Both the position numbers and the translations under genes were made by a program. 64,000 bases of DNA. It comes from a virus (taxonomy: Duplodnaviria > Caudoviricetes). Below the pieces are notes generated by a model. It was given only the letters and a program-made list of their open reading frames with translations. It searched no databases and was not told the origin of the DNA. The DNA lies in the IMG/VR virus record IMGVR_UViG_3300031992_000007, positions 32,001-96,000 of that record; one strand, 5' to 3'. Numbering within the stretch: position 1 is the stretch's first letter; each line of letters opens with the position of its first letter. Of this stretch, positions 13,196 through 31,600 are shown in pieces.

Positions 13196-16057
13196 TCAGA
13201 CGACTTTCACGAATCGCTGAGGTGTTGACGGTATTTCCTTGTTGACTTCGTATGCCGTGTCATTAACGAACCTGTTATTGGTCGCATCAAACACGAAGTA
13301 TTGCACGCCAGACTTGTAGGTCGCGTCAGCTGTCGGACTATACGGGAACCGAACCTCAACAGGAACTCCATACACCCACTTGTAATCGACAGTGTCCTGG
13401 TCTTTAACCGCGAACTCCACGATCACTGAGCCCATCACCTGCGTGTTAAGGAGATCGTCGTCTCCAACCACAGTAGGCAGAGGACCACCGAGGGTGTTGG
13501 TAGGATAGTACCTGCTTCCAGAGATATTCTCTCCGTTGATCACAAGGTTGATCGCCGCATTGTTCATCGAGAACTGTTCAGGTATTTCCTTCCAGTCTGA
13601 AGTTATCGGACGGAGTCTCTGCAGGAACCAGGAGGTTCTCTGATCAGCGTTGAGAACTGTACCGACGACTGTGCCTATAACCTCAGTGTAAGTGGAAGTT
13701 GTCTCATCGAAGGTGAAGTACCTGAAGCCTGCCTGAACCTTGATGGTATAACGGTTAACCTTAGTCTTACCAGGGACTGTTGGGACCAAAGTTCCAGACT
13801 TGTCGAAATACTCAACTCCTTCAAGGGCATACTCAGAAGAGAGAGCATCGTACGTGTCAACTTCGGCGATCGTACGGATACGATATCTGTTGACAGCATC
13901 AGTCATTCCATCATTGTCGACATCGACAGGATCAGGATAAGCCTTAGTGAAGTAGTTCTTGAGGAACTCCGTCTTATTCATGAACGAATCGACGGTAGCT
14001 CTACCGATGTACAAGGTATAACCAGTACCAGTCTCAGCAGGAACACACTCTATCCAAGGACGGATAGCGTCAGTCACAGAACCATAAGGAACCTCACCAG
14101 AAGTGTACTCCTCAATAACAGAGGTATCAGTCCTGAACGAACCGATAAGCCACTTGGCAGCTATACCCATGTCAGTCCACGGCTGGAGACGCATCGCAAC
14201 ATTCTGTCTGTACACATCTGACTCGTAGCCGTCTTTCTTGACGACGTAAGCAAGTCTTCCGTGTTCATACAGACCGAAGTTCTCACCTAGCATCTTAGGA
14301 TCAAGAGCAAGGACACTTCCATTGGGGTCTTTGTAAGATGCGTTGTTGAACAGGAGGTTCATGGAACCACCAACCGCGCTTCCTTCCGATATCAACTTCG
14401 GTTCAGTGAACTCGTTGTTGTAGGGAAGGAACATGAACACATACTTACCCGTCTTGTAGTCCCACACTGGGATGGTACTTACCTTACGGACAGTTGTGCT
14501 AGCTCCAGCAACTACTTTGACCCTGAGGGTAGTGGAGACGAAGTTCTTCGACATGTTCTCGAACACTCCAGACACTTCTGTCGGGAAGAACTTGAACAAG
14601 ACGCTGAAGATCTGTCCTACATTGGCAGAGTTGATGTTCTCGATGCCGTACGCGAAAGACTGTACATTGTCGATAGGAACTACTTCGGATGAACCATCGT
14701 TGAAGTTGAGAGTAGGATGAAAGATCCATCCAAGCTCCTGAATAGTCCTACCAACTTCAAGCTTAACAGTCCCATCTGTGTCAAATTCAGCATTCTGAAC
14801 CACCACAGAGAAGTTGTCAAGCTGTTTGGTTATCTTGGTAGTTGGGTTAAGGACAGAACCAGGCTTGACTATGAGAGTCAAGCTAAGAACCATCCGGTAA
14901 GCATCACCCTCGAACTCATAGACTTCCATCGTCACGGTTTCACCGGACGAAAGATTTACTCCTGGCTTGAGATAGCATCTCTCAGGGTAACGAATGGATG
15001 CATCCGGGTTAGTAGACTCTGTTATCCATCCTTGGAACTCCTGATAACCAGCACCAGAGTAGTTGTTGATGAACTGATCACCACGGACGAAGATCCTAGC
15101 ATAACCAGGATCATCTCCAGAAAGCAGATAACCAACCTTGGTAGGTTCCTTGTCACCCTGCTTAGGATAGACATTGTAGTCCGTACCAGGAACAAGCTGT
15201 CGATAAGACTTCTTACCTGTCTGGTCGTAGACCTCTAGATAGTACGTCTTCCCCGAAAGGTAGTACTCATCAAGTGTCTTGCAGCGCACGCTGGCAGAGG
15301 TCGGGTCCGGAATGATGACAGTCCGGTAGTTTGCCCCAACTTTGATGGCGAAGAGTTTGCCTTGGTTGCCAGAGAGCTTATCCTTGGTGAGAGTGAGGCT
15401 TGTAGTTGTTTCTCCAGAATACGGGATAAGTGCATCGTTCGTGATTCCTATTAGAGACTTGTCCGGGACAGCAATCGAATGGCCTTTAGCATCCCTCAGG
15501 GCGTAGGCGTAGAGTCTATGCCCATAGAGCATGAGTTTCCTATCAGGGCAAGCCCTAATGAGATCCTCGTCCTTCTCGAGATACAACATGAACCTATCGT
15601 TGCCATAGTCCACTATCCTGGTGGAAGCTTCCGTATCCTGTCCATTAATAGACGGGACCAAGATGGACTTGAACGTTGGGTTGTCACCCTGATCGTCGAC
15701 AGACTCAACGATCAGGATGGATCTTTCTTTGAAGTTACCGTAGTCCGTGTCACAGACAACGACACTGTTGACAGCAGGAACGTACTTCCCCGTCTGGTCA
15801 GCATGAGCCTCATTAACTTCGTACCAGCCTTTCTCTTTAGGGTTAACTGGAGAAGTACTAGAGATGCTTACAGGAGTGAAGGTGATCGTTCTGTTGGCAT
15901 AGCTTCGTGTGTAGTACGTCTTATCCTGGACAGTTATGTCTTCGGTAGGGATGTACTGGTCGTTGTCAGGATCATAGATCTGGGTAATTCGGACGACATC
16001 AGGCCCGATATTTCCAAACAGGACTATCGGGTTATCTGTAGAAATTCCTCTACTCAT
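13196..16057 (-). CDS. baseplate/structural protein (phiKZ gp26-like) with inserted repeats
   Basis: 953 aa; GKYVPAVNSVV, PDRKLMLYG, SGETVTMEVY; position between terminase and sheath. Confidence 0.65.
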   Translation of the reverse strand: MSRGISTDNPIVLFGNIGPDVVRITQIYDPDNDQYIPTEDITVQDKTYYTRSYANRTITFTPVSISSTSPVNPKEKGWYEVNEAHADQTGKYVPAVNSVVVCDTDYGNFKERSILIVESVDDQGDNPTFKSILVPSINGQDTEASTRIVDYGNDRFMLYLEKDEDLIRACPDRKLMLYGHRLYAYALRDAKGHSIAVPDKSLIGITNDALIPYSGETTTSLTLTKDKLSGNQGKLFAIKVGANYRTVIIPDPTSASVRCKTLDEYYLSGKTYYLEVYDQTGKKSYRQLVPGTDYNVYPKQGDKEPTKVGYLLSGDDPGYARIFVRGDQFINNYSGAGYQEFQGWITESTNPDASIRYPERCYLKPGVNLSSGETVTMEVYEFEGDAYRMVLSLTLIVKPGSVLNPTTKITKQLDNFSVVVQNAEFDTDGTVKLEVGRTIQELGWIFHPTLNFNDGSSEVVPIDNVQSFAYGIENINSANVGQIFSVLFKFFPTEVSGVFENMSKNFVSTTLRVKVVAGASTTVRKVSTIPVWDYKTGKYVFMFLPYNNEFTEPKLISEGSAVGGSMNLLFNNASYKDPNGSVLALDPKMLGENFGLYEHGRLAYVVKKDGYESDVYRQNVAMRLQPWTDMGIAAKWLIGSFRTDTSVIEEYTSGEVPYGSVTDAIRPWIECVPAETGTGYTLYIGRATVDSFMNKTEFLKNYFTKAYPDPVDVDNDGMTDAVNRYRIRTIAEVDTYDALSSEYALEGVEYFDKSGTLVPTVPGKTKVNRYTIKVQAGFRYFTFDETTSTYTEVIGTVVGTVLNADQRTSWFLQRLRPITSDWKEIPEQFSMNNAAINLVINGENISGSRYYPTNTLGGPLPTVVGDDDLLNTQVMGSVIVEFAVKDQDTVDYKWVYGVPVEVRFPYSPTADATYKSGVQYFVFDATNNRFVNDTAYEVNKEIPSTPQRFVKVV

Positions 16058-20678: not shown

Positions 20679-20763
20679 ACTTTTCTCCTGAAAAGGCGAA
20701 GTAAAAACTATGGTCTTTTGCGAGACTATAGCATGGTTCAAAGAACAAAAAGGAATAAATCAA

Positions 20764-23667
20764 ATGTCAACTGTTGCTCCTTATCCTCACGTAGAGATTG
20801 GGGTCAGAGACGAGTCGATTTACATCCCTATTGACACTGAGGACATGCCGCTTTCGCAGCCGCTGTACTTCATGCGTGCCAAGAAGGGCCCTGTCGGGGT
20901 TCCTGTCTGGTGCGTGTCGTACGACGTAGCCTGCAGGGTGTTCGGCGCGGACACCTTCAACAAGCGCAGTCCGTACTTCTCGGAACAGGCGAAGTTCTTG
21001 CTCCAGACGTTCCCGATGAACGGCGCATGGATTATGCGTGTTGCCGGTCCGACGGTCACGTCCGCTGATATCCAGATCGAAGTGGGTATCTCTAAGGAGA
21101 CGGTCGATGTTCCGCAGTGGCAGAGGGACGAGAACGGCGCATTCGTTCTCGAACTCGACGGATCGAAGATTCCGATCAACGATGAGGGCAAGCCGTGCGA
21201 GAAGATAGAGAATCCTGATCACAAGGCTATCTATCGTCGCGCGACTGAAACGATCGCTATCCAGGGTCGTACCTACTTCACGCGCGATGCGAATCGTTCC
21301 TACGCTGCTATCAACCGTAGGGATCGTCGTATCAAGGACGTTGAGTATTTCGCTGGTAACGGCACGCCTACTCTGGCTGTTGTCGATACTGCCACAGAGA
21401 CTGAGCCTAAGGCTGGTGTCCGTTACTTCGAGTTGGACATCACGGGTGAAGAGGGTGCTGAGACGTATGCTGCGAAGTATATCGTCGATCTGACCGCTTT
21501 CGATAGCGAGAAGACATACCTCAAGCTCACGGGCTGGTCCGGTGGTTACACGGCAGTCACGACTGTCGATGATGGTTCTGGTACGCAGGTTGGTCCTGTG
21601 CTTCCGCAGATCCCCGTTGGTAACACGCAGGGTGATCGCTTCGTCAAGATTCAGGAGAACGTCAGCCTCAAGCTCGTTGAGGTCGATGGCGGTTACGCTG
21701 TCGATGCTTCTGATTCCGAGACGGCTGCGGCGTACGGTTCGTACTTCTTCATGGGTACGCTCGACGAGACCGATCCTTACACGTACACGAACGCTGAGGT
21801 TCCGGCTGGCACGTACATCGCTGACACCGAACTCTACTACTTCTACGGCTGGCTTGATGACTACACTCTCGAGCCGCAGGCCAAGATCCCTGGTCGCAAG
21901 CTTGTGTGGCGTGCTCGTGTCGCGGATCGCTCCGCTGATACTGGTCGTGCCGTTGGCAAGTTCAAGACCTACGAGACCGAGAACTTCAAGTGGTATCCAG
22001 TCGTGGATATCGTTGCGGAGAACCCGGGTAAGTGGGGCGAGTCGTTCGGTATTCGTCTGTACTTCGACAAGGATCGCAACACGATTGCGCTCCAGCAGCA
22101 GAACGGTGCTGTCAACTACACGGTTGCTCCTATCGAGCTTCTCGATGGTGACACGCTCCCGACGGCGGTTGTGTCGTCGACACAGGACATCTGCGTTGTC
22201 GGTACGATGCGTGACGGAGTTGTTGACCTCGAGACCGACGTTGACCTCTCGCTCAACAAGCGTATCCCGAACATGTACAAGGGCCTGCAGACCCTTCCGA
22301 TCAAGATCGTTCCGGTCTCCGAGGCTTGGAATGCTATCGGTAAGGAGTTGATGGCTGCTGAAATCTCGCAGGAAGCCCGTCGTGAGATCAAGCGTCTCTA
22401 TCCGACGTTCCGCACTGTTGTGGACACTGAGGGTACCGAAACGCCTGAGACCTTCGTGGATGCTCTCTACGGCAAGGTCGTCACTGACATGGCTGATGTT
22501 GGCGAGCTCGATGGTCACATGGCTAACCCGCTCAGCTGCATGGATGCGGAAGAGATTCCGTACTTCACGACGGCTGTTGTGGACAGCGATGATGAACTCG
22601 TTACTGCCGACTCGCGTATCGATGTTGCGAAGGTCTATGTCCCGGCGCAGTCTGTCCCGATTTACCTCGGCGGCGGTAACGACGGCGATATCCTCGATAA
22701 CGACATCGAGAAGTACATCCGTGCGCAGATCAAGGCTGGCCAGGGTGGTACGCAGGAATATCTCCTCGACTATCCGCGCTGCCCGTTCAACGCAATCTAC
22801 GACTCTGGTGTGTCGGTGAAGACGAAGAAGGCGTACATCGACATGATGGCCTTCCGCGACAACGTTGTGATCAACCTGGCTACTCAGACGACCTGGCGTA
22901 CGGCGACGAATGAGGAATACTCGCTCAACGGTGAGTACCCGAACAATCGCTCGGACGACGAGTCGATCGGTGCGTCGCTTCGCTCCTATGCGTGGCTGAT
23001 GCGTGAGGACGTGAACAATGGTACGGAAGCGTGCCGTTGCAAGATCTTCCTTCATGCTGGTAAGATCAGTGGTTTCGATGGCTGGGTACCTGCGACCCTC
23101 TGGATCGCGATGAAGGATGCCGAGTATCTGAACCTCGATCACATCGATCAGGAGCCTGCTGGCCTGCCTAACTCGGCGGTCACTTGCTTCACTGAGGTGT
23201 CGTGGCGTGCTGGAACTGCGGACACGCAGAGCCGTTGCTGGAATGCTGGTCTCAACTACTGGCAGTCTTACGACAAGGATACGGCTGATGGTCAGGCGCG
23301 TCTGCACTACGCTGCGCTCCGTACTGTCTACCGCTACGAGACTTCTGTTCTCGTCGACTCGGGCGTTGTGAACGCGCTCTGCTTCTCTAAGGACATCGTC
23401 CGCAAGAGCTGGGCTAAGTTCTCTGGCGTCAAGATGTGGTCGGCTGAGCTGAATGCTCGTGTCACCAAGGACCTTACTCAGCGTCTCAGCTACATGCTGA
23501 ACGGTAAGTATACGGCCGAGGTGAATGTGTATCAGACTGATGAAGACGTCAAGCTCGGTTATACGCGCCACGTCGACATCATCCTGACTTCGCCCGCTAC
23601 CAACCGCGTCTGGCAGACCACTATCATCTGTCGTCGTGAGGGTTACGATCCCAATGCGGCTGAGTAA
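20764..23667 (+). CDS. tail sheath protein (phiKZ gp29-like) with a large insertion
   Basis: GVRDES, KKGP, FGADTF, NPGKWG, YLGGGNDG, IYDSG motifs; strongly biased codon usage. Confidence 0.88.
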   Translation: MSTVAPYPHVEIGVRDESIYIPIDTEDMPLSQPLYFMRAKKGPVGVPVWCVSYDVACRVFGADTFNKRSPYFSEQAKFLLQTFPMNGAWIMRVAGPTVTSADIQIEVGISKETVDVPQWQRDENGAFVLELDGSKIPINDEGKPCEKIENPDHKAIYRRATETIAIQGRTYFTRDANRSYAAINRRDRRIKDVEYFAGNGTPTLAVVDTATETEPKAGVRYFELDITGEEGAETYAAKYIVDLTAFDSEKTYLKLTGWSGGYTAVTTVDDGSGTQVGPVLPQIPVGNTQGDRFVKIQENVSLKLVEVDGGYAVDASDSETAAAYGSYFFMGTLDETDPYTYTNAEVPAGTYIADTELYYFYGWLDDYTLEPQAKIPGRKLVWRARVADRSADTGRAVGKFKTYETENFKWYPVVDIVAENPGKWGESFGIRLYFDKDRNTIALQQQNGAVNYTVAPIELLDGDTLPTAVVSSTQDICVVGTMRDGVVDLETDVDLSLNKRIPNMYKGLQTLPIKIVPVSEAWNAIGKELMAAEISQEARREIKRLYPTFRTVVDTEGTETPETFVDALYGKVVTDMADVGELDGHMANPLSCMDAEEIPYFTTAVVDSDDELVTADSRIDVAKVYVPAQSVPIYLGGGNDGDILDNDIEKYIRAQIKAGQGGTQEYLLDYPRCPFNAIYDSGVSVKTKKAYIDMMAFRDNVVINLATQTTWRTATNEEYSLNGEYPNNRSDDESIGASLRSYAWLMREDVNNGTEACRCKIFLHAGKISGFDGWVPATLWIAMKDAEYLNLDHIDQEPAGLPNSAVTCFTEVSWRAGTADTQSRCWNAGLNYWQSYDKDTADGQARLHYAALRTVYRYETSVLVDSGVVNALCFSKDIVRKSWAKFSGVKMWSAELNARVTKDLTQRLSYMLNGKYTAEVNVYQTDEDVKLGYTRHVDIILTSPATNRVWQTTIICRREGYDPNAAE

Positions 23668-23691: not shown

Positions 23692-24636
23692 ATGGCAAGT
23701 TACGAAAACTTTCTTAAGAACAAGAAGGTTCTTACGCCGGATGGTGGCATAGTCTCTGACCTCATCACAGGTGGTCAGCTCGGTTACGGTTACAAGGCCT
23801 CTGGCTTCGACGCCGCGACCCCGCTGGCTCTTCCGCCTGCGTTCATCGTCGTCCTTCAGACTCCTACGATGTGGGATAACCTGAATGACGAGGGTGTGCT
23901 TCGTCAGACTGTGAAGTGTCTCTTCGAGACACACGCCAAAGCGGTCACTGGTATCGATGCGAACTACACGCTCGAGAATCAGGGTCAGCCTGTCGGTCAC
24001 GACTCGCAGGAACTCAAGGTTCCGACGCGCTCCACTCGTGCTCCTGTTGATCCGAACTTCACCTGGAGTGAGGTCACGGGTAACCTGGTGTGGCGTGTCA
24101 TGCATCGCTGGATCTGGGATATTTCCAACCCGGATACTGGTACGGCGTTCGAGCACGAAGGTGCCAACGTCAGTGAGGCTGCGCTCAATACGTACACGAT
24201 GTCCTCGTATGCGTTGACGTTCGCGGTTCTCCAGTACGACAAGACGATGCATCCTGATCGTATGCTGGATGGCTCGATCATCACCAACGTCTACCCGACG
24301 ACCACTGGTGAGTTCGGTATGGAGAGGACGGAGGGAACCACGAAGGTTCCTGAGCGTGCTATCGCCTTCACTGGTTACATCATTCACAACGAGCGTACGA
24401 AGGAGATCGCCCGTACCATCGCCAAGAGCATCAAGCTCCGTGGTGAGACGTACAAGGTCGCCCGTGCGAACGTAGATGACAATGTGCCGGTCAGCCAGCT
24501 GCTCGGTACAGTTGGTCTGGGTGACAATATCCAGCTCACGCGTACCGCCGAGCGTAAAGACTGGAACATCGCTGCTCCTAGCGGTGAGAAGGGTCCTACG
24601 AATCAGCTCAACTACCCGTACGCGATCAAAGGTTAG
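23692..24636 (+). CDS. tail tube protein (phiKZ gp30-like)
   Basis: Follows the sheath; LFETHAKAVTGI, PNFTWSEVTGN; GGAG SD. Confidence 0.8.
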   Translation: MASYENFLKNKKVLTPDGGIVSDLITGGQLGYGYKASGFDAATPLALPPAFIVVLQTPTMWDNLNDEGVLRQTVKCLFETHAKAVTGIDANYTLENQGQPVGHDSQELKVPTRSTRAPVDPNFTWSEVTGNLVWRVMHRWIWDISNPDTGTAFEHEGANVSEAALNTYTMSSYALTFAVLQYDKTMHPDRMLDGSIITNVYPTTTGEFGMERTEGTTKVPERAIAFTGYIIHNERTKEIARTIAKSIKLRGETYKVARANVDDNVPVSQLLGTVGLGDNIQLTRTAERKDWNIAAPSGEKGPTNQLNYPYAIKG

Positions 24637-24674
24637 CGTAAGAACTTCGATCTACAAAGTCAAGTTCAACATCT

Positions 24675-24719
24675 CCATCCTGGGCCCTCACGGGTCCAGG
24701 ATGGGATCTTTTTCTTTTT
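24675..24719 (+). terminator. intrinsic terminator of the sheath/tube operon
   Basis: CCATCCTGGGCCC-tcac-GGGTCCAGGATGG followed by TCTTTTTCTTTTT. Confidence 0.85.
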
Positions 24720-24722
24720 GTT

Positions 24723-25695
24723 AGGTGGGACAGGATTGGAATACCCATTTGTGAACTATGGGGATCCATCCAGCTCCATGATAAAGGTAATAAACCATAG
24801 AGGGAAATACTCTGCGGATTTTACTCAAGGACAATCGATCTTAAGTGCTCCTGGATGGCTCTCCAGGTGGGTACTTATACAGAACAGATGTAGATATATT
24901 CAACTACAGTGAAGGAGGCATTAGCGACCTAGGTAGATGTGGAATATGGGATTCTGTTACAACACATCCAATACAGAAAACCAGATGGCTCTCCAAGGTG
25001 GAGAGTATCTATACGTCAATCCACGAAACAACTTGTCTGCACGGGTAACGCAAATTAAATATGATGGCACCAGAGAATTTATTCCATATAACTCGAATAA
25101 ATCTAAAGAACAGAACGAATTGGTGATATGGCTCTCCTAGTGATGTGAGAGGTAGTACGTGGCAGTATGCAGCATCTAGAATAGGTGTTCAAGGTAGGTA
25201 CGGAGAATGGACTAATATTTGGAACTGGCCATACAGCTCTCGGTCTTATGAATCACCAGTAAGAGAGTTAAGGCTCTCCCAGGGAGGTGTAGGAATGCAT
25301 AGACCAGATGGAGACAATGGAAATCCTTGGGTATGTGGATCTACAACTGTAAACAACATTGGACAACCTCTGACGTATTACTCGAGAGTTAATCTTGGCG
25401 CAGATTCTGTGAAGAAAGTAGTAAGGCTCTCCCACTCATAGGTGCAGCAGATTTCGGATTAATGATGTTGACTGTGGGCTACCCTATGGGTTATGCAGAT
25501 CATGGAAACCAAGGAGTCGATCATCCTGACAGACCTAGATTTCAAAGGCTCTCCGCCGGAGGTGGAAATGAGATTAGACCTTTTGGATCAATTATTGACT
25601 TTAACGGTCAACTCGATTACCTAGGAAATGGGTGGGTATATTTCTTACCAAATGATCCGTTATGGACCAATAAGTCTTATTCTAAAAGGCTCTCC
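24723..25695 (+). repeat. array of 7 variable coding cassettes bounded by AGGT and WGGCTCTCC
   Basis: GGCTCTCC at 24857, 24987, 25130, 25272, 25425, 25547, 25688 (spacing 122-153 bp); in-frame GGT codons, each preceded by A, at 24724, 24866, 24997, 25151, 25286, 25441, 25561; no stops in the cassette frame. Confidence 0.9.
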
Positions 25696-25740
25696 AAAAA
25701 TAAAAACATAGGGTAGGGTGGGCACGAAGCCCACCCTACC
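25696..25740 (-). terminator. intrinsic terminator of the portal gene
   Basis: GGTAGGGTGGGC-acgaa-GCCCACCCTACC with a T tract (TTTTTATTTTT) downstream on the minus strand. Confidence 0.85.
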
Positions 25741-25755
25741 TCTATTTCGAAGGCC

Positions 25756-28569
25756 TTACATATCGAAGTTGAGTTCGTCTCCACCTCCACCACCTTCGCC
25801 TCCCTCACCGCCTTCTCCACCTGTTTCACCACCTTCCTCTGTACCAGAGTCAGTAGTGGTCGTTTCAGATGTAGGAGTGTAAGTAGACCCAGCACCTTCA
25901 CCGTTGTTGGTCTGATCAGCAAGTTGGTTAAGTCCCATCTTGGCGATGTTGTCCATACGACGTTTGAAGTTGTTGAGGAACATAATGAGTTTGGCAGGCT
26001 GTTCAGTAGAGATCTCCTCGATATCAGGAATGTCAGCGATCTCATGGAACCCAAGACGAGGCAAGAAGTCTCGAATGAGCTTAGCCTTAGCGACTGCTCT
26101 GACCGAAGCCATAAGAGACCTGACGTCGTCATTAGGAGCGACATCATCAGGATAGATGCACTCGAGTATCTTGTCTATAGCGTCAACCTGAGCATTGATC
26201 TCCTCGAAGTGAGCTTTGTTACCAACCATATTCGGCGGAGGAAGAAGGAGTTCGACAGTGCCTATAACTCTCTTAAGAGCTTCCTCTACATCCTCATCGT
26301 TGGAAGGATCCTGAGTTGTAACTTCCTTCTCATCGTCCTTCTCGGCTTCTTCGATACCGACCTTAGTCTTAGTCTTCTTGCCATCCTTGTCATCGTGGAT
26401 GATCTTGCGGATCTCTTCCAGCAGGCTATCATGAGCCAGGATGTAGTTCATCAAGAAGATCTTGACCTGAGGTTTGATCATGTTCTGCCAGTTACGGACA
26501 GCATTGGAGAAGAACAGGTTGGAAGTCGCAACAGACCTGGAATATTCAGCCTCACTGAGCTGATTGAGAACAGAAGGAGGAACCTTAAGGGCAATACCTA
26601 TCCAGTTGTTCAGAGTATCCATCAAGTCCTGATCAGGAGCTTGAGACTGACCATACGAAGTCTCAGTTGTGATGTTCAGGTCATCCGTGTTACCAAGGAG
26701 GCCTTTAGGCACAATAGAGAGATGTTGATTCAGGATGTTCTCTGCAGCAGTTGAAGGATCAGTCGGGAACTGAGGAACCTTCTTAGCCATCCAGGCATTG
26801 CGGACGATATTGAGAGTGCCCAGAACATTCTGGTTCTTCTCATCGACGTTCACCTCGATACGTCTATGCTTGGTGGCGTTGTCCACAGCCGCCATGATCT
26901 TGGCTATGGTCAACGTAACACGCAGACCAAGCAGATAGGCTATGTCCTCAAGGAAGGTCTTGCCTGTACCATCCTCACGATGAGCGAACCTGATGTAGGT
27001 CATCATCGGTGCAGGGACGAATACAAGTTTGATCTTGTTCTTGGCAAGGAGATTGAAGAACAGACACTTACCCACAGCTTCGTGGACATGAATGTCCAGT
27101 CCAGTAAGACCCTGCTTCTTAAGCTTAGACTCAAGAAGGTGGTTGACAGCGACAGCGAAGACTTGCGTCATCTGCTGAAGCACATCACTAGTCTGTACAC
27201 CAGACTCCTTGTAGGTCTGCATGGTTATGCCGCCATAGACAGCCTTAGCTGCATTGGTAGCAAGCTTGTTGGTAGCATCGGTTGTAACACCACCATTGAA
27301 GACATAGTTACCACGAGCAGGTTGACCATTCTCATCCAGAGCAATGTAGTAGCCAATGTGGTTCTTGTTATCCCTAGGAGCACAGACAGGAATGACTGCG
27401 TCACAGGGAAACTCAATCACGATAGGCATATCGTTCTCGGCTGTCTTGATAACATCCGAAACAGTGTACACTGGGAGTTGGGGTCTTCCAGTTGCATCAT
27501 CAGTGGGATTGAACCCACGAATCAGAGACATGGCTTCCCTGGTAAGTTCATCCAATTTAGCACTGGCTTCTTTCCTACCTTTAGTAAGCTGACGGATGTC
27601 CCTGGTGATGGTTATTGCATCGTGGTTGTCACTCGTTCTGAGAAGTTTGAAGGCTCCTTTAGCAAGGGCTTTAGCAAGCTGATCAGCTGAGGAGTAAAGT
27701 TTCTTTTCGGATTCCGACTTACCCTCAAGGGAGATGTGTTCTTTACCAGCGTTGCTCTTCTCGATGAGAGCAGCAGCCAGTGTCTCCATAGAGGCTTCCA
27801 GTTCCGAGAAGTTTTCAGGGATATCCATCTCATCAAGAGAGGGGACATTACTCTCTGTAGCAACTCCATCCGGAAGTTTCTTCTTAACAGTCGACCAGCT
27901 AGAGAAATCAACAAGACTCTCTGTAGATGTTACAGCATTGTGCTCATTCTCGAATTCCCTCTTGGCATCCTGGAACTTCTTAAGGGTTTCAGGATCCCAC
28001 TTATCAGCAACCACATTGAGAATATCGAGTTGGTTCTTGGGGAGAACAAGGACAGGTTTAGCACCCTCTTCGAATCCAGCACAACCTAGCCACTCGGCCA
28101 ACCTAGGGCCAAGGGCATACTCCTTGTTGAAATAGTCAGTGAGCTTGGAAGAAATACTTGCATTGACAGACTCGTCCAAACCAGGATGATTAACCTGGAT
28201 GGCAATACTGTCAGTCTGCATCTCCAGAGGTGAGATAATGGAGGAGACGATAATCATCCTTGCATGATCGATCTCAGGAGCCATGATCTTCAAATTCTTC
28301 AGCTCGTCGATCGTCTTCCTAGTATTGGCGGAGATATCCGTCAACGTAGTCATGATCGCATCTTCAGTAAGCTGATCACGCTTCTTCTGAGCACGGTTCT
28401 GAAGAATACCGTCCAGGTGTCTAAGTTCTTGGGTTGAGAACATACCGAAGTGGGCAGTTTCCTCTGTTCCACGTCGACTGTCCGAGATCTCAGCGCTATT
28501 GTTGGTGCCGAAGAATCTTGCGACTCTCGACATCATTCTGTATGCACCTTCAGTAATACTTGACGCCAT
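25756..28569 (-). CDS. portal protein (phiKZ gp129-like)
   Basis: IIVSSIISP, AVIPVC..NHIGYYIALDENGQP, EDGTGKTFLED motifs; STES/ATES/SME/SLE processing sites; acidic C-terminal tail. Confidence 0.8.
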   Translation of the reverse strand: MASSITEGAYRMMSRVARFFGTNNSAEISDSRRGTEETAHFGMFSTQELRHLDGILQNRAQKKRDQLTEDAIMTTLTDISANTRKTIDELKNLKIMAPEIDHARMIIVSSIISPLEMQTDSIAIQVNHPGLDESVNASISSKLTDYFNKEYALGPRLAEWLGCAGFEEGAKPVLVLPKNQLDILNVVADKWDPETLKKFQDAKREFENEHNAVTSTESLVDFSSWSTVKKKLPDGVATESNVPSLDEMDIPENFSELEASMETLAAALIEKSNAGKEHISLEGKSESEKKLYSSADQLAKALAKGAFKLLRTSDNHDAITITRDIRQLTKGRKEASAKLDELTREAMSLIRGFNPTDDATGRPQLPVYTVSDVIKTAENDMPIVIEFPCDAVIPVCAPRDNKNHIGYYIALDENGQPARGNYVFNGGVTTDATNKLATNAAKAVYGGITMQTYKESGVQTSDVLQQMTQVFAVAVNHLLESKLKKQGLTGLDIHVHEAVGKCLFFNLLAKNKIKLVFVPAPMMTYIRFAHREDGTGKTFLEDIAYLLGLRVTLTIAKIMAAVDNATKHRRIEVNVDEKNQNVLGTLNIVRNAWMAKKVPQFPTDPSTAAENILNQHLSIVPKGLLGNTDDLNITTETSYGQSQAPDQDLMDTLNNWIGIALKVPPSVLNQLSEAEYSRSVATSNLFFSNAVRNWQNMIKPQVKIFLMNYILAHDSLLEEIRKIIHDDKDGKKTKTKVGIEEAEKDDEKEVTTQDPSNDEDVEEALKRVIGTVELLLPPPNMVGNKAHFEEINAQVDAIDKILECIYPDDVAPNDDVRSLMASVRAVAKAKLIRDFLPRLGFHEIADIPDIEEISTEQPAKLIMFLNNFKRRMDNIAKMGLNQLADQTNNGEGAGSTYTPTSETTTTDSGTEEGGETGGEGGEGGEGGGGGDELNFDM

Positions 28570-28609
28570 TGTATGTCCTTGCCTTTCTATAAGAAAAGGA
28601 GAAGTAGAA

Positions 28610-31600
28610 ATGTCACTTTTAGGTACTCTTGCGAACAAGGAAATCAACGACTTCCTGCGCACTGTCACTATCAAGAACGCCTACTTCGCAACTCGTAGCA
28701 GAAACCGTCAGCTTCACGCTAATGTTGCATCGGTTCCGGACAATGTTGTCCCCTACTATAAGCATATAGCTGGAGAGTATATTCTCAAGGAACCTGTAGT
28801 CTGCAAGGTGAAGAATCCTAAGACGGGACTTTATGAGTCTCAGACCTATGCTGCAACTGCCCTCATTATCAACGAAGTGGGTCGTCAAAATCGTGAAGTA
28901 AATAATGCCGACCTCTATGAAGAGTCGGCCTTCGACGAGATGATGTACGTCGTTTCGCTTGATACTGGAGAGGAGATTCCATTCACCCTAGAGAACCTGC
29001 ATGCAGAGTTCGCATCGGATGCTTCTGCAGTCCACGAAAAGACTCTTGAAGCATACAAAATTCCTGGTCGTTATTACGACCTTTTGTGTGAAAAATACCC
29101 AGCACAGGTAGACTTAATCAAAGCCATAGTATATCCTGTTACCGGCGTCCGTGGCATCACGGATGTCGAGTTAAACGAGTACGAAGTTAATGGAGAACCC
29201 CTTCCTGGTTATAAGCAAAGACGGCGTGATGCAATCGTTGCAGCAGCTGACTTTTCATTGCTCGCTTGTGACGAAACTATTCTTGAGGAATTGGAGCGTC
29301 ACGACCTGATAACTTATGCGAAGATGATCCTTCGCAACCTCGATAAGAGGTGGAACATCCAGGAGTTCTGGAAGGAGCAAAATTACCCACTCGTCCTCTG
29401 GACGATTGTGTGGTGTTCTCTGAAGCTAGGTCTCATCACCAGGCGTTACGAAAACATCAAGACTCAGTTTGCTCACTCTAGCCATGTGTGGGACTACCTT
29501 GAGTCCAAGGGGATGGAACCTTATCGTGGTTACTTGACCACGGCTCAGACGAAGTTTCTCTACAAGAACATCGAGTACATTCTCAGGAATAGAGGTAAGC
29601 AGAAAGTTACCAACATTCTTGTAGATGAGTTTCTTTCAGACATCGGACTTAATCTCAAGACGAAGACGATCGTTCTGGATACGACTGACACACTCGATAA
29701 GTCGAAGCTGCACCATATCTCGAATGTCAAAACTCAATGTGCTTCGTGCTCAAGGAGATCCTACTGTCACAAGAACATCACGAACTTCGAATGCCCCAAT
29801 TACCTCAACGTAACTGGACTGTGCGAAGCGCAGCCTATTGTTCTCACCGAGGAATTCGTTGGCGCACGCAAGTCTAAAATCATCGATGCTCTCATTAAGC
29901 AGTATGGTTACTCTGAAGATGATGCTAGAACGAAGTATGAACGTTCGATGATCTGGCGCGATGATGAAGTAGAAGCTATTCGTAGTGACTACGATCGCGA
30001 CCAGCTGACAGATGTCGGCGGTCCTACTGAATCTCTCGATGCTCTTATCCAGAGAGAACACTCATCTGGTCTGGAACCCGAGTACAACCAGAATGTTGTG
30101 GATCAGCAGACTAAGGAACTTCAGCACATAGCTGGAACTGTTGCGCCTACCAAGCTTATCGAGCTTACCAAAAACAAGCCGTCTGCTAAGTATGCTTCGA
30201 TGTTCAACAAGTTCCTTACCGAGACTCTTCTTCACTTGGCTCCTAGACTGTACACTTATGTGGACGACAACGGTAAGACGGTTACGGAAACTCTCACGAA
30301 AGTCTTCAATGACTACAATGTCACTTTCAGGGATGTAAGTACGAACTGTCAGTTGTCGTATGGCGAACTCATCGCCATGATGTACTTGGGCACGATCAAG
30401 GAATACAAGATCGATCTCTTCTTCGATCATGTGTTCGGAGATACTGCTTATGCCAGAGACTGCCAGTACTACCGTGCTGCGGATCTCAGTCTCGAAGGCG
30501 AAGCTTACAAGACAGAAGTAGTTACTCTGAGCAATGCTCTGAAGATAGCTCCTATCTATCCTGGAGATTATGTCATCGGTACAGTTGTTCCTACTGAGGG
30601 TGTTTATGTCAAGGTAGGTGAACGATACGTGCCTTGTCAGGACAGGGTGTTCAATGAAGACACGGACTACTACAAGTTCGATGAGGAAGTGTCTGATTAT
30701 GTCAAGATGACCTCTGGCGACTACGTTGTCGGAGAAGCCGTCAATAGAGACGATGTCTATCTCTGGGCACCTTACAAGATCATCGATAGTCGTCCTACCA
30801 AGCCTCTTGAGATGGCTGCTGGTCATGATCCTCTTACCGACTTCCAGCATACCTGGACTTACGAGTTCCCTGTCCCTGGTGGGGCTAGGATCAAGAACGC
30901 GTTCAAGTTCGGTAGACCTGTTCCACAGCAGGCTCTGGTAGATGCTTGGTACACAGATTCCGATTCCGACTTCGACTACGAGGGTATTATTCCTTCAGAC
31001 CTAGTCGACAAGTGGATTACTGGTGGGGTGGACTTCCATATCCTTACTGTCAATGGTTCTGTGTATGTTGTGACTGCCATAACCAACACCGTCTCTGAGA
31101 TGTGGGAAGGATGGCCTGTCGCCCTGAGGATCGAAGGTATCATCAAGAACAGAGCATTCTTCCCAGCTAGAGATGAGACAACTATCATCCCCAAGTATGC
31201 TCGGTGGTATTCTGACCACCTTCTTCCTGACAGCGATGGTCAAGCGACTAGCTCGACTGATGTTGATGTTATCGAAGATGGTGTTCTTCCTCTAGATGAG
31301 GACTCTGTAACGACCAGTGATGAGCAAGAGACGAAGAAGTTGGTTATCAAGTTCGATGCTAACAAAGGTCGTAAGTACATCCAGTTGGAGATTGAGAAAT
31401 ACTTCGACATGGATAAGTTCCTTAACGACTATGTGGATCTCATGGAGAATGTAACTTCCCAGGAAGCCCTTGGAGCGTACATTGCCAAGATGTTCACTCT
31501 ACTTGAACACACCTTCGTCTACGGAGAATCGTCTCCTTCTATTGAAACCCAAATCTGTGTCAAGGAAGTTCTTGATAGCTGTATGGTCAACATACAGGAC

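Follow-up and report, generated by a model that had tools for sequence, protein, structure and literature searches.

The giant phage recorded as IMGVR_UViG_3300031992_000007 in IMG/VR probably holds a large silent library of tip cassettes, spread over its 265-kb genome, for host-range switching. The stretch of DNA analysed here (the window) comprises 64,000 nucleotides (nt) and corresponds to genome bases 32001-96000; coordinates below are those of the window unless marked as genome positions. Seven short open coding units stand in it head to tail at 24723-25695. An earlier note on the window (hereafter the original prediction) had interpreted these units as a library of alternative segments for an expressed gene, and this interpretation is supported by the analysis reported here. 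The reading that we favour, with modest confidence, is that the silent cassettes are copied non-reciprocally and directionally into a single expression site, with a fixed border on either side.

The expression site was foreseen as a gene with A-GGT...[W/R]LS borders. Such a gene exists, and 160 nt at its tip reproduce an array unit perfectly. This acceptor, the tail-fibre-like open reading frame (ORF) P0001 of 1412 amino acids (aa), lies outside the window on the minus strand (genome 224574-228812, equivalent to window positions 192574-196812), about 168 kb from the seven-unit array. Its C-terminus runs ...YWWLRSAGG, a 50-aa cassette closing in RLS, PLITIG and a stop. The last 160 nt before CCGCTG are identical at 160 of 160 positions to genome 243698-243857. 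This donor twin consists of a GCCGGA spacer and the unit that closes the array at genome 243018-243857. Acceptor tip and donor match from CTCCGCCGGAGG to GGCTCTCC, beyond which their flanks are unrelated. The constant acceptor sequences on both sides of the cassette are unique in the genome, and the remaining 51 cassettes are unrelated to the acceptor tip. So perfect a copy indicates a recent event.

The genome is a single viral contig of 265,480 bp with 47.6% G+C, 100% complete according to CheckV. It belongs to a phiKZ-like giant phage, encoding a gp29-type sheath, a tail tube and DUF7193. We counted GGCTCTCC 50 times on the plus strand and 3 times on the minus strand, where about 3.6 copies are expected per strand. 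Every one of the 53 copies closes an in-frame, stop-free unit with a length that is a multiple of 3; 52 of the units are silent, and the remaining one sits inside a gene. The genome-wide search for further arrays that the original prediction proposed did turn up more, and the window's seven units belong to this set of 53. The silent units are kept in ten stores: eight plus-strand arrays of 4-9 units, one lone plus-strand unit and one 2-unit array on the minus strand. Cassette size across the genome is 114-153 nt, and 50 of the 52 silent units run in the direction opposite to the acceptor. The two-unit minus-strand array (genome 10854-11106), the only silent array sharing the acceptor's orientation, stands back to back with a plus-strand array at genome 11111-11913.

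The Gly codon GGT and the Leu-Ser codons CTC TCC are invariant in all units. Hence the borders are constrained as nucleotides, and in fixed codon phase. An A precedes GGT, at position -1, in 50 of 52 units, and conservation falls off gradually farther upstream. A trailer resembling CAAAAATAAA and a hairpin follow nine of the ten arrays. The acceptor-type spacer GCCGGA occurs at five array junctions (window 25555-25560; genome 11380, 136573, 243702 and 246687), and at one junction only (genome 136568-136578) the match to the acceptor's 5' flank extends over 15 nt. These acceptor-type spacers look like footprints of transfer between acceptor and arrays, or of selection for longer homology.

Relatives carry unrelated tips between these two borders. 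A search of 5.8 billion proteins returned seven acceptor homologues (41-64% identical), encoded on ENA metagenome contigs that reach 259 kb; contigs of the relatives include ERZ27280006 k141_1410216, ERZ26858457 NODE_4, ERZ27280833 k141_289608 and ERZ27279222 k141_195714. When 1.8 billion representatives were searched exhaustively, ten members only came up; the acceptor family is therefore rare. When eight acceptor homologues were aligned, the scaffold was kept to YWWLRSAGG and was followed by 40-55 unalignable aa. The tail [R/W]LSPLITIG was kept in six of the eight, the two exceptions being P0007, which bears extra cassettes, and P0008, which runs into the contig end. The nucleotide motifs GCCGGAGGT and GGCTCTCCCCGCT persist even at 41% protein identity. 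L019 and L020, two related loci, agree at 94.0% of positions in the 600 nt that lead to GCCGGAGGTG, at 31.8% within the cassette and at 88.4% past GGCTCTCC. L021 has three cassettes, with spacers of the array type, between the 5' anchor and PLITIG, the arrangement that a copying tract crossing several units would be expected to leave.

The arrays of these relatives obey the same grammar, with 9, 3, 14, 3+2 units and others. The syntenic arrays of L019 (9 units) and L020 (3 units) have no cassette in common. After the tail tube gene there are 7 units here, nine + units in L037 and at least five inverted ones in L036, and none in the more distant L038-L041; no L036 or L037 cassette at this place resembles the window's seven. 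At L036:6480-7449 the tail tube protein is 85% identical, the array is inverted with respect to that of the window, and the contig ends inside the array. Orthologous cassettes occupy different arrays in different phages. Window unit 7 and L019:3581-3715(-) share 55.6% aa identity, with proportions of synonymous (pS) and nonsynonymous (pN) differences of 0.47 and 0.30 and a nonsynonymous to synonymous rate ratio (dN/dS) of 0.53. Cassettes thus vary among strains, as the original prediction required, in number and order and also in orientation. In no relative did we see the region as one intact repeat-protein ORF, the case that had been named as evidence for a frameshifted pseudogene.

A more distant relative, the 239-kb scaffold L022, is built differently. 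Its cassettes alternate in orientation (L022:1-5700 and 15990-16050). Its joints are palindromic, with 3' ends of the form GGCTCTCC-N4-15-GGAGAGCC and 5' ends ACACTT..AAGTGT, and the scaffold terminates in fold-back sequence exactly at the acceptor's 5' site. L022 looks like a true multiple-inversion version of the cassette system.

Beyond these loci, INPHARED yielded no close relative by blastn, nor by tblastn of the acceptor, and searches for related loci gave no match, whether the query was the tail tube protein or the acceptor alignment. Pattern hits in IMG/VR and JGI metagenomes (13 each) were rejected as apparent chance matches, on GC-rich contigs or in collagen-like repeats; they held no arrays and no acceptor motifs.

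Are the silent cassettes still under coding constraint? In six homologous cassette pairs dN/dS was 0.18-0.53, with a pooled pS of 0.52 against a pN of 0.26, and indels between homologous cassettes occurred only in multiples of 3 nt. The G+C content at third codon positions (GC3) is 0.37 for all silent cassettes versus 0.585 in the acceptor gene, which is consistent with long unexpressed storage. This pattern fits cassettes that are maintained as coding sequence, being rarely expressed but cleared of nonsense mutations.

The array in the window illustrates this organization. Each of its seven units opens A|GGT(G/A) and closes [A/T]GGCTCTCC, and the GGCTCTCC copies stand at 24857, 24987, 25130, 25272, 25425, 25547 and 25688, exactly where they had been placed by the original prediction. 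All units lie on the plus strand. Cassette 1 (24723-24864; A|GGT ... TGGCTCTCC; 141 nt, 47 codons) has 6 and 1 stops in its other frames. Cassette 2 (24865-24994; 129 nt, 43 codons) has a 0-nt spacer ahead of its AGGT. Cassette 3 (24996-25137; 141 nt, 47 codons) is followed by cassette 4 (25150-25279; 129 nt, 43 codons), the sole AGGTA variant of this array, then by cassette 5 (25285-25432; 147 nt, 49 codons) and cassette 6 (25440-25554; 114 nt, 38 codons). Cassette 7 (25561-25695; 135 nt, 45 codons) has an orthologue in the related phage L019. It is preceded by the spacer GCCGGA (25555-25560), the same 6 nt that precede GGT in the acceptor gene, which lengthens its 5' match to the acceptor to 14 nt (CTCCGCCGGAGGTG).

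Measured from GGT to TCC, these units span 24724-24864, 24866-24994, 24997-25137, 25151-25279, 25286-25432, 25441-25554 and 25561-25695, and all seven of the lengths given above are multiples of 3. Gaps of 1, 2, 13, 6, 8 and 6 nt separate them, so the frame changes at four of the six junctions, as had been claimed. The claim that GGT is in frame with the closing motif and stop-free in all seven units also held: we counted 0 stops in the GGT frame and 1-7 in each other frame. Composition-preserving shuffles give seven stop-free interiors a joint chance of 5e-10, which falls to 2e-13 with in-frame lengths added.

The array fills the interval between two convergent terminators, 24674-24705 (+) and 25740-25712 (-), and its G+C content is 0.41-0.45 versus about 0.55 in the flanking structural genes. 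No tRNA (ARAGORN) and no Rfam family matched anywhere in the window, and a promoter-match scan found no sigma-70-like promoter in the array. The upstream boundary is the intrinsic terminator of the tail tube gene, a 14-bp stem followed by a T-run, and the array starts just past it. The tail tube gene itself lies at 23692-24636 (+) (PF23806 Phage_TTP_14, E 1.9e-27), with the tail sheath gene upstream of it at 20710-23667 (phrog_3242, E 8e-66). Past the last unit comes an A-rich trailer (25696-25711, +), the minus strand of which forms the T-run of the neighbouring gene's terminator. The hairpin of that terminator, with a 12-bp perfect stem (25712-25740, -), is the downstream boundary and belongs to a convergent virion structural gene (25756-28674, -; phrog_3004).

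What sort of protein receives the cassettes? For the C-terminal 223 residues of the acceptor, 28 of 30 ESM Atlas neighbours were DUF6273 clusters, with scores up to 0.95. The Pfam DUF6273 model was weakly matched by 2 of 12 acceptor-family members, and hhalign of the acceptor family against the neighbouring DUF6273 proteins gave a probability of 92% and an E value of 5e-7. Those neighbouring proteins likewise end in WLRS, a variable stretch and a short hydrophobic strand; the variable block of the acceptor sits between WLRS and the last strand. The gene upstream of the acceptor matches a tail-fibre PHROG. DUF6273 is a C-type-lectin-like receptor-binding domain, at the C-terminus of which lie the variable regions of diversity-generating retroelements (DGRs) (PMC11792537, PMC10743442, bioRxiv 10.1101/2024.10.15.618418). 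By this homology, the cassette would replace the very part of the domain that DGRs mutate. Two more fibre-like genes with DUF6273-type C-termini come after the acceptor locus (genome 218551-220463, -). The phage thus carries three lectin-like tips, with cassette borders in one only.

Under the reading we favour, the ten stores would hold 52 start-less cassettes, each an alternative form of the 38-51 residues that immediately precede the domain's final strand. Exchange would use the two borders between which related phages carry unrelated cassettes, (GCCGG)A|GGT on the 5' side and GGCTCTCC|CCGCT on the 3' side. One cassette, or an adjacent run of them, would be copied into the expression site while the donor is kept. 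Copying would probably be directional and start from a break or nick (by gene conversion or synthesis-dependent strand annealing), with the invariant 3' motif as its anchor and its resolution at the shorter, looser 5' motif. Because cassettes are multiples of 3 and both borders lie in fixed codon phase, any swap leaves PLITIG in frame. The outcome would be an altered ligand-binding surface and hence an altered host range, and the same copying between arrays would shuffle cassettes among the stores. Directional copying is favoured by the retained donor, by independence of orientation and distance, and by the three-unit tract in L021. The sole HNH-type endonuclease found in the genome (HNH_3, genome 177302-177430, -, in a 283-aa ORF) lies far from the acceptor locus and is a generic candidate for the initiating break.

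Functionally, such a system would be closest, by analogy, to silent-cassette conversion of the vls/pilS type, acting on a target served in phages by DGRs and tail-fibre shufflons. Borrelia vlsE/vls and Neisseria pilE/pilS likewise have one expression site and many promoterless, start-less, in-frame silent cassettes, each with short conserved flanks, in a silent array that is often inverted relative to the expression site. The vls cassettes are flanked by 17-bp repeats. Transfer in those systems is non-reciprocal and leaves the donor intact; the counterpart here is one 160/160 event of unproven direction. The differences are equally clear. Here the cassettes are carried by a virus instead of a bacterium and would vary a receptor-binding tip instead of an antigen. 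Whole cassettes of 114-153 nt lie between borders of 4-5 nt and 8 nt, whereas vls and pilS undergo segmental conversion over long internal homology. The phage cassettes are also mutually unrelated and dispersed in ten arrays over 265 kb, with no RecA-type function found.

CRISPR arrays have repeats of about 23-50 bp, non-coding spacers and cas genes. The arrays here have an 8-nt repeat plus a separate 4-5-nt 5' motif, and between the repeats lie open coding units of 114-153 nt in fixed phase. The original prediction had set these arrays apart from CRISPR, from single-template mutagenic DGRs and from the alternating inverted units of shufflons, and for the arrays of this genome it was right. 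No earlier description came to light when the literature was searched for the motif or for silent cassettes in phages.

Several observations weigh against the copying model. One exact copy leaves the direction of copying unproven, and writing from acceptor to array could equally have produced it. The shared borders are very short: 4-5 nt on the 5' side and 8 nt on the 3' side, up to 14-17 nt for some cassettes. No annealing protein was identified, and in genome-wide searches neither tyrosine (PF00589) nor serine (PF00239) recombinases nor IS110 gave a family match, nor did RecA. The data are assemblies, and no within-population switching was seen in them; a second, independent JGI assembly (L044) carries the identical gene with the identical tip, and an acceptor contig is present in JGI metagenome 3300035054. 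No silent twins of the relatives' acceptor tips were present in the ~35 kb examined per contig, and a further 9.5 kb of one relative contig contained two more arrays, still with no match to the relatives' tips. As to the target, the acceptor had no Pfam, PHROG or PDB sequence match. An AlphaFold model of its C-terminal domain, built on a 12-sequence alignment, was unusable at a predicted local distance difference test (pLDDT) score of 43.7. Its putative fibre or receptor-binding role rests on the DUF6273 likeness and the gene neighbourhood.

Could the same library be exchanged conservatively instead? Site-specific recombination of a shufflon or Min/Rin-like kind would place crossovers at GGCTCTCC and at the 5' site, with inverted sites or sister genomes as partners, and two crossovers would swap cassettes. 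We consider this unlikely, though it accommodates a good deal. The inversion of 50 of 52 silent units relative to the acceptor, the inverted array after the tail tube gene of L036, and the multiple-inversion layout of L022, with its palindromic joints and a contig that stops at the acceptor's 5' site, all fit it. An invariant 8-mer suggests recognition by a protein; Rin recombination uses 11-bp rix sites (PMC6109161). Even the duplicated tip could still arise by exchange between sister genomes. However, a genome that is 100% complete by CheckV has no match to a tyrosine or serine recombinase or to IS110. The donor copy is retained, which simple intramolecular inversion cannot yield. The arrays are head-to-tail and lie up to ~220 kb from the acceptor, so that a single crossover would invert large portions of the genome.

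Gin of Mu, Cin of P1, Min of p15B and Rin of Bifidobacterium prophages (PMC6109161) resemble the present system in pairing a constant N-terminal part of a fibre or receptor-binding protein with start-less alternative C-terminal parts. The parts are joined in frame at a short repeated crossover site and serve host-range variation, and L022 shares their alternating inverted layout. In the inversion systems each segment has a single crossover site, the 2-6 segments are local and supply complete C-termini, and a serine or tyrosine invertase is encoded next to them. Here, in contrast, an internal segment lies between two distinct motifs with a constant tail after it, and 52 dispersed units are arranged head to tail. 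The tip is present twice, in acceptor and array, and there is no PF00239 or PF00589 match.

A further alternative is RNA-templated and derived from a DGR: transcripts of an array would serve as templates for complementary DNA begun at the 3' motif, an anchor like the initiation of mutagenic homing (IMH) site, and this DNA would replace the tip without mutagenesis, helped by an Avd-like protein. That protein, conserved and 333 aa long, is encoded four genes downstream of the acceptor (genome 221821-222822, -, equivalent to L014:1821-2822) and matches phrog_3206, "Avd protein of DGR", at E 1.3e-7. Its N-terminal domain is predicted as a four-helix bundle (pLDDT ~90); the C-terminal half is disordered, proline-rich and charged. 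Its closest structural counterparts were the S23/IVP family (2gsc and 2rld; template-modelling [TM] scores 0.83-0.87) together with Bordetella phage Avd and DGR ribonucleoprotein (4dwl and 8ubb; TM 0.72-0.81). PDB sequence searches with this protein and with a neighbouring 435-aa protein were uninformative.

In favour of RNA templating, the target is a DUF6273-type domain varied where DGRs vary it, the Avd-like protein is near the acceptor, and copying would be unidirectional and indifferent to orientation and distance. A strict 3' border and a looser 5' border are also as in DGR retrohoming. Nevertheless, the whole 265-kb genome gave no match to PF00078 (RVT_1) at E<=1, and there was no reverse transcriptase (RT) among the called genes of five related loci. 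Pfam PF05635 (23S_rRNA_IVP) matched neither the Avd-like protein nor anything else in a genome-wide search, and four-helix bundles are common. None of the 47 adenines has changed in the 160-nt copy, and the window array, enclosed by terminators, has no recognisable promoter. We regard RNA templating as quite improbable.

Set beside DGRs acting on DUF6273 or C-type-lectin folds (BPP-1 Mtd; the tentaclins of gut phages, PMC10743442; Faecalibacterium prophages, PMC11792537), the present system has the same scaffold and the same site of variation. The likeness extends to C-terminal variation of a DUF6273-like target (a fold assigned here by homology, its own model reaching pLDDT 44), perhaps to a nearby protein with a predicted Avd-like fold, and to what would be one-way transfer with an unchanged template. 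Unlike a DGR, it has no RT, 0 of 47 adenines are changed, and 52 unrelated ready-made templates take the place of one template region homologous to the variable region.

A bolder view would see in these features an enzyme-directed "cassette homing" machine of giant phages, perhaps descended from a DGR that lost or hides its RT and kept an Avd-fold factor. We offer this only as a speculative idea with a small chance of being right. Copying from the invariant 8-nt anchor would, with the same small chance, write any of ~50 unrelated, pre-evolved loops, genome-wide, into a lectin-like tip.

Alternatively, the units could be unprogrammed debris, that is, displaced tips or orphan 3' ends left by rare illegitimate recombination, with exchange on evolutionary time only. 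No enzyme was identified and no within-population variation seen, array content turns over between lineages, and the L021 tips are stacked behind the acceptor like displaced orphans. We nevertheless think this very improbable. The 53 units here and ~45 in relatives are still stop-free and in phase, with dN/dS <1. Even the synonymous positions of the two motifs do not vary between lineages whose acceptors are only 41-64% identical, where debris would decay. The 160-nt perfect copy points to a recent event. The orphan cdiA-CT/rhs-CT arrays are a natural comparison: they too consist of start-less alternative C-terminal modules behind or away from a large gene, with one short junction each, and the stacked modules of L021 resemble them. 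They differ in carrying whole toxin domains with immunity genes behind a single junction and in relying on homologous recombination over a conserved motif region, whereas the pieces here are very small loop cassettes, bordered on both sides and followed by a constant tail.

The units can hardly be expressed in place, whether as a multitude of small peptides or as a single repeat protein made by recoding or frameshifting: AGGTG does resemble a Shine-Dalgarno sequence, and unit 5 has GGAGGTG with an ATG 5 nt on, but AGGT holds a fixed codon phase, unlike a ribosome-binding site, most units are without an in-frame start near the 5' end, the 1-13-nt gaps lack slippery or matching take-off and landing codons, cassette GC3 is far under that of expressed genes, the window array lies between terminators, and no relative has a single ORF. 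Ribosome-binding sites of small genes were ruled out by the phase-locked AGGT and the missing start codons.

Phages are known to retarget their receptor-binding proteins by two programmed routes, DGR mutagenesis and local DNA inversion, and the cassette library would be a third. It would amount to a genome-wide library of ~50 ready-made, selectively maintained loops for a C-type-lectin-like scaffold, without a recognisable recombinase or RT. Were the cassette-homing idea true, phages would have a combinatorial library strategy instead of a mutagenic one. The system raises a question of enzymology, namely, what recognises GGCTCTCC. Its exact in-frame borders would also offer a natural site for grafting in studies of lectin-fold binders. 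If the switch is active, a single giant phage could try out dozens of receptor specificities, which would matter for host range in the viromes of gut and rumen and for the tolerance of the DGR target fold for wholesale loop replacement.

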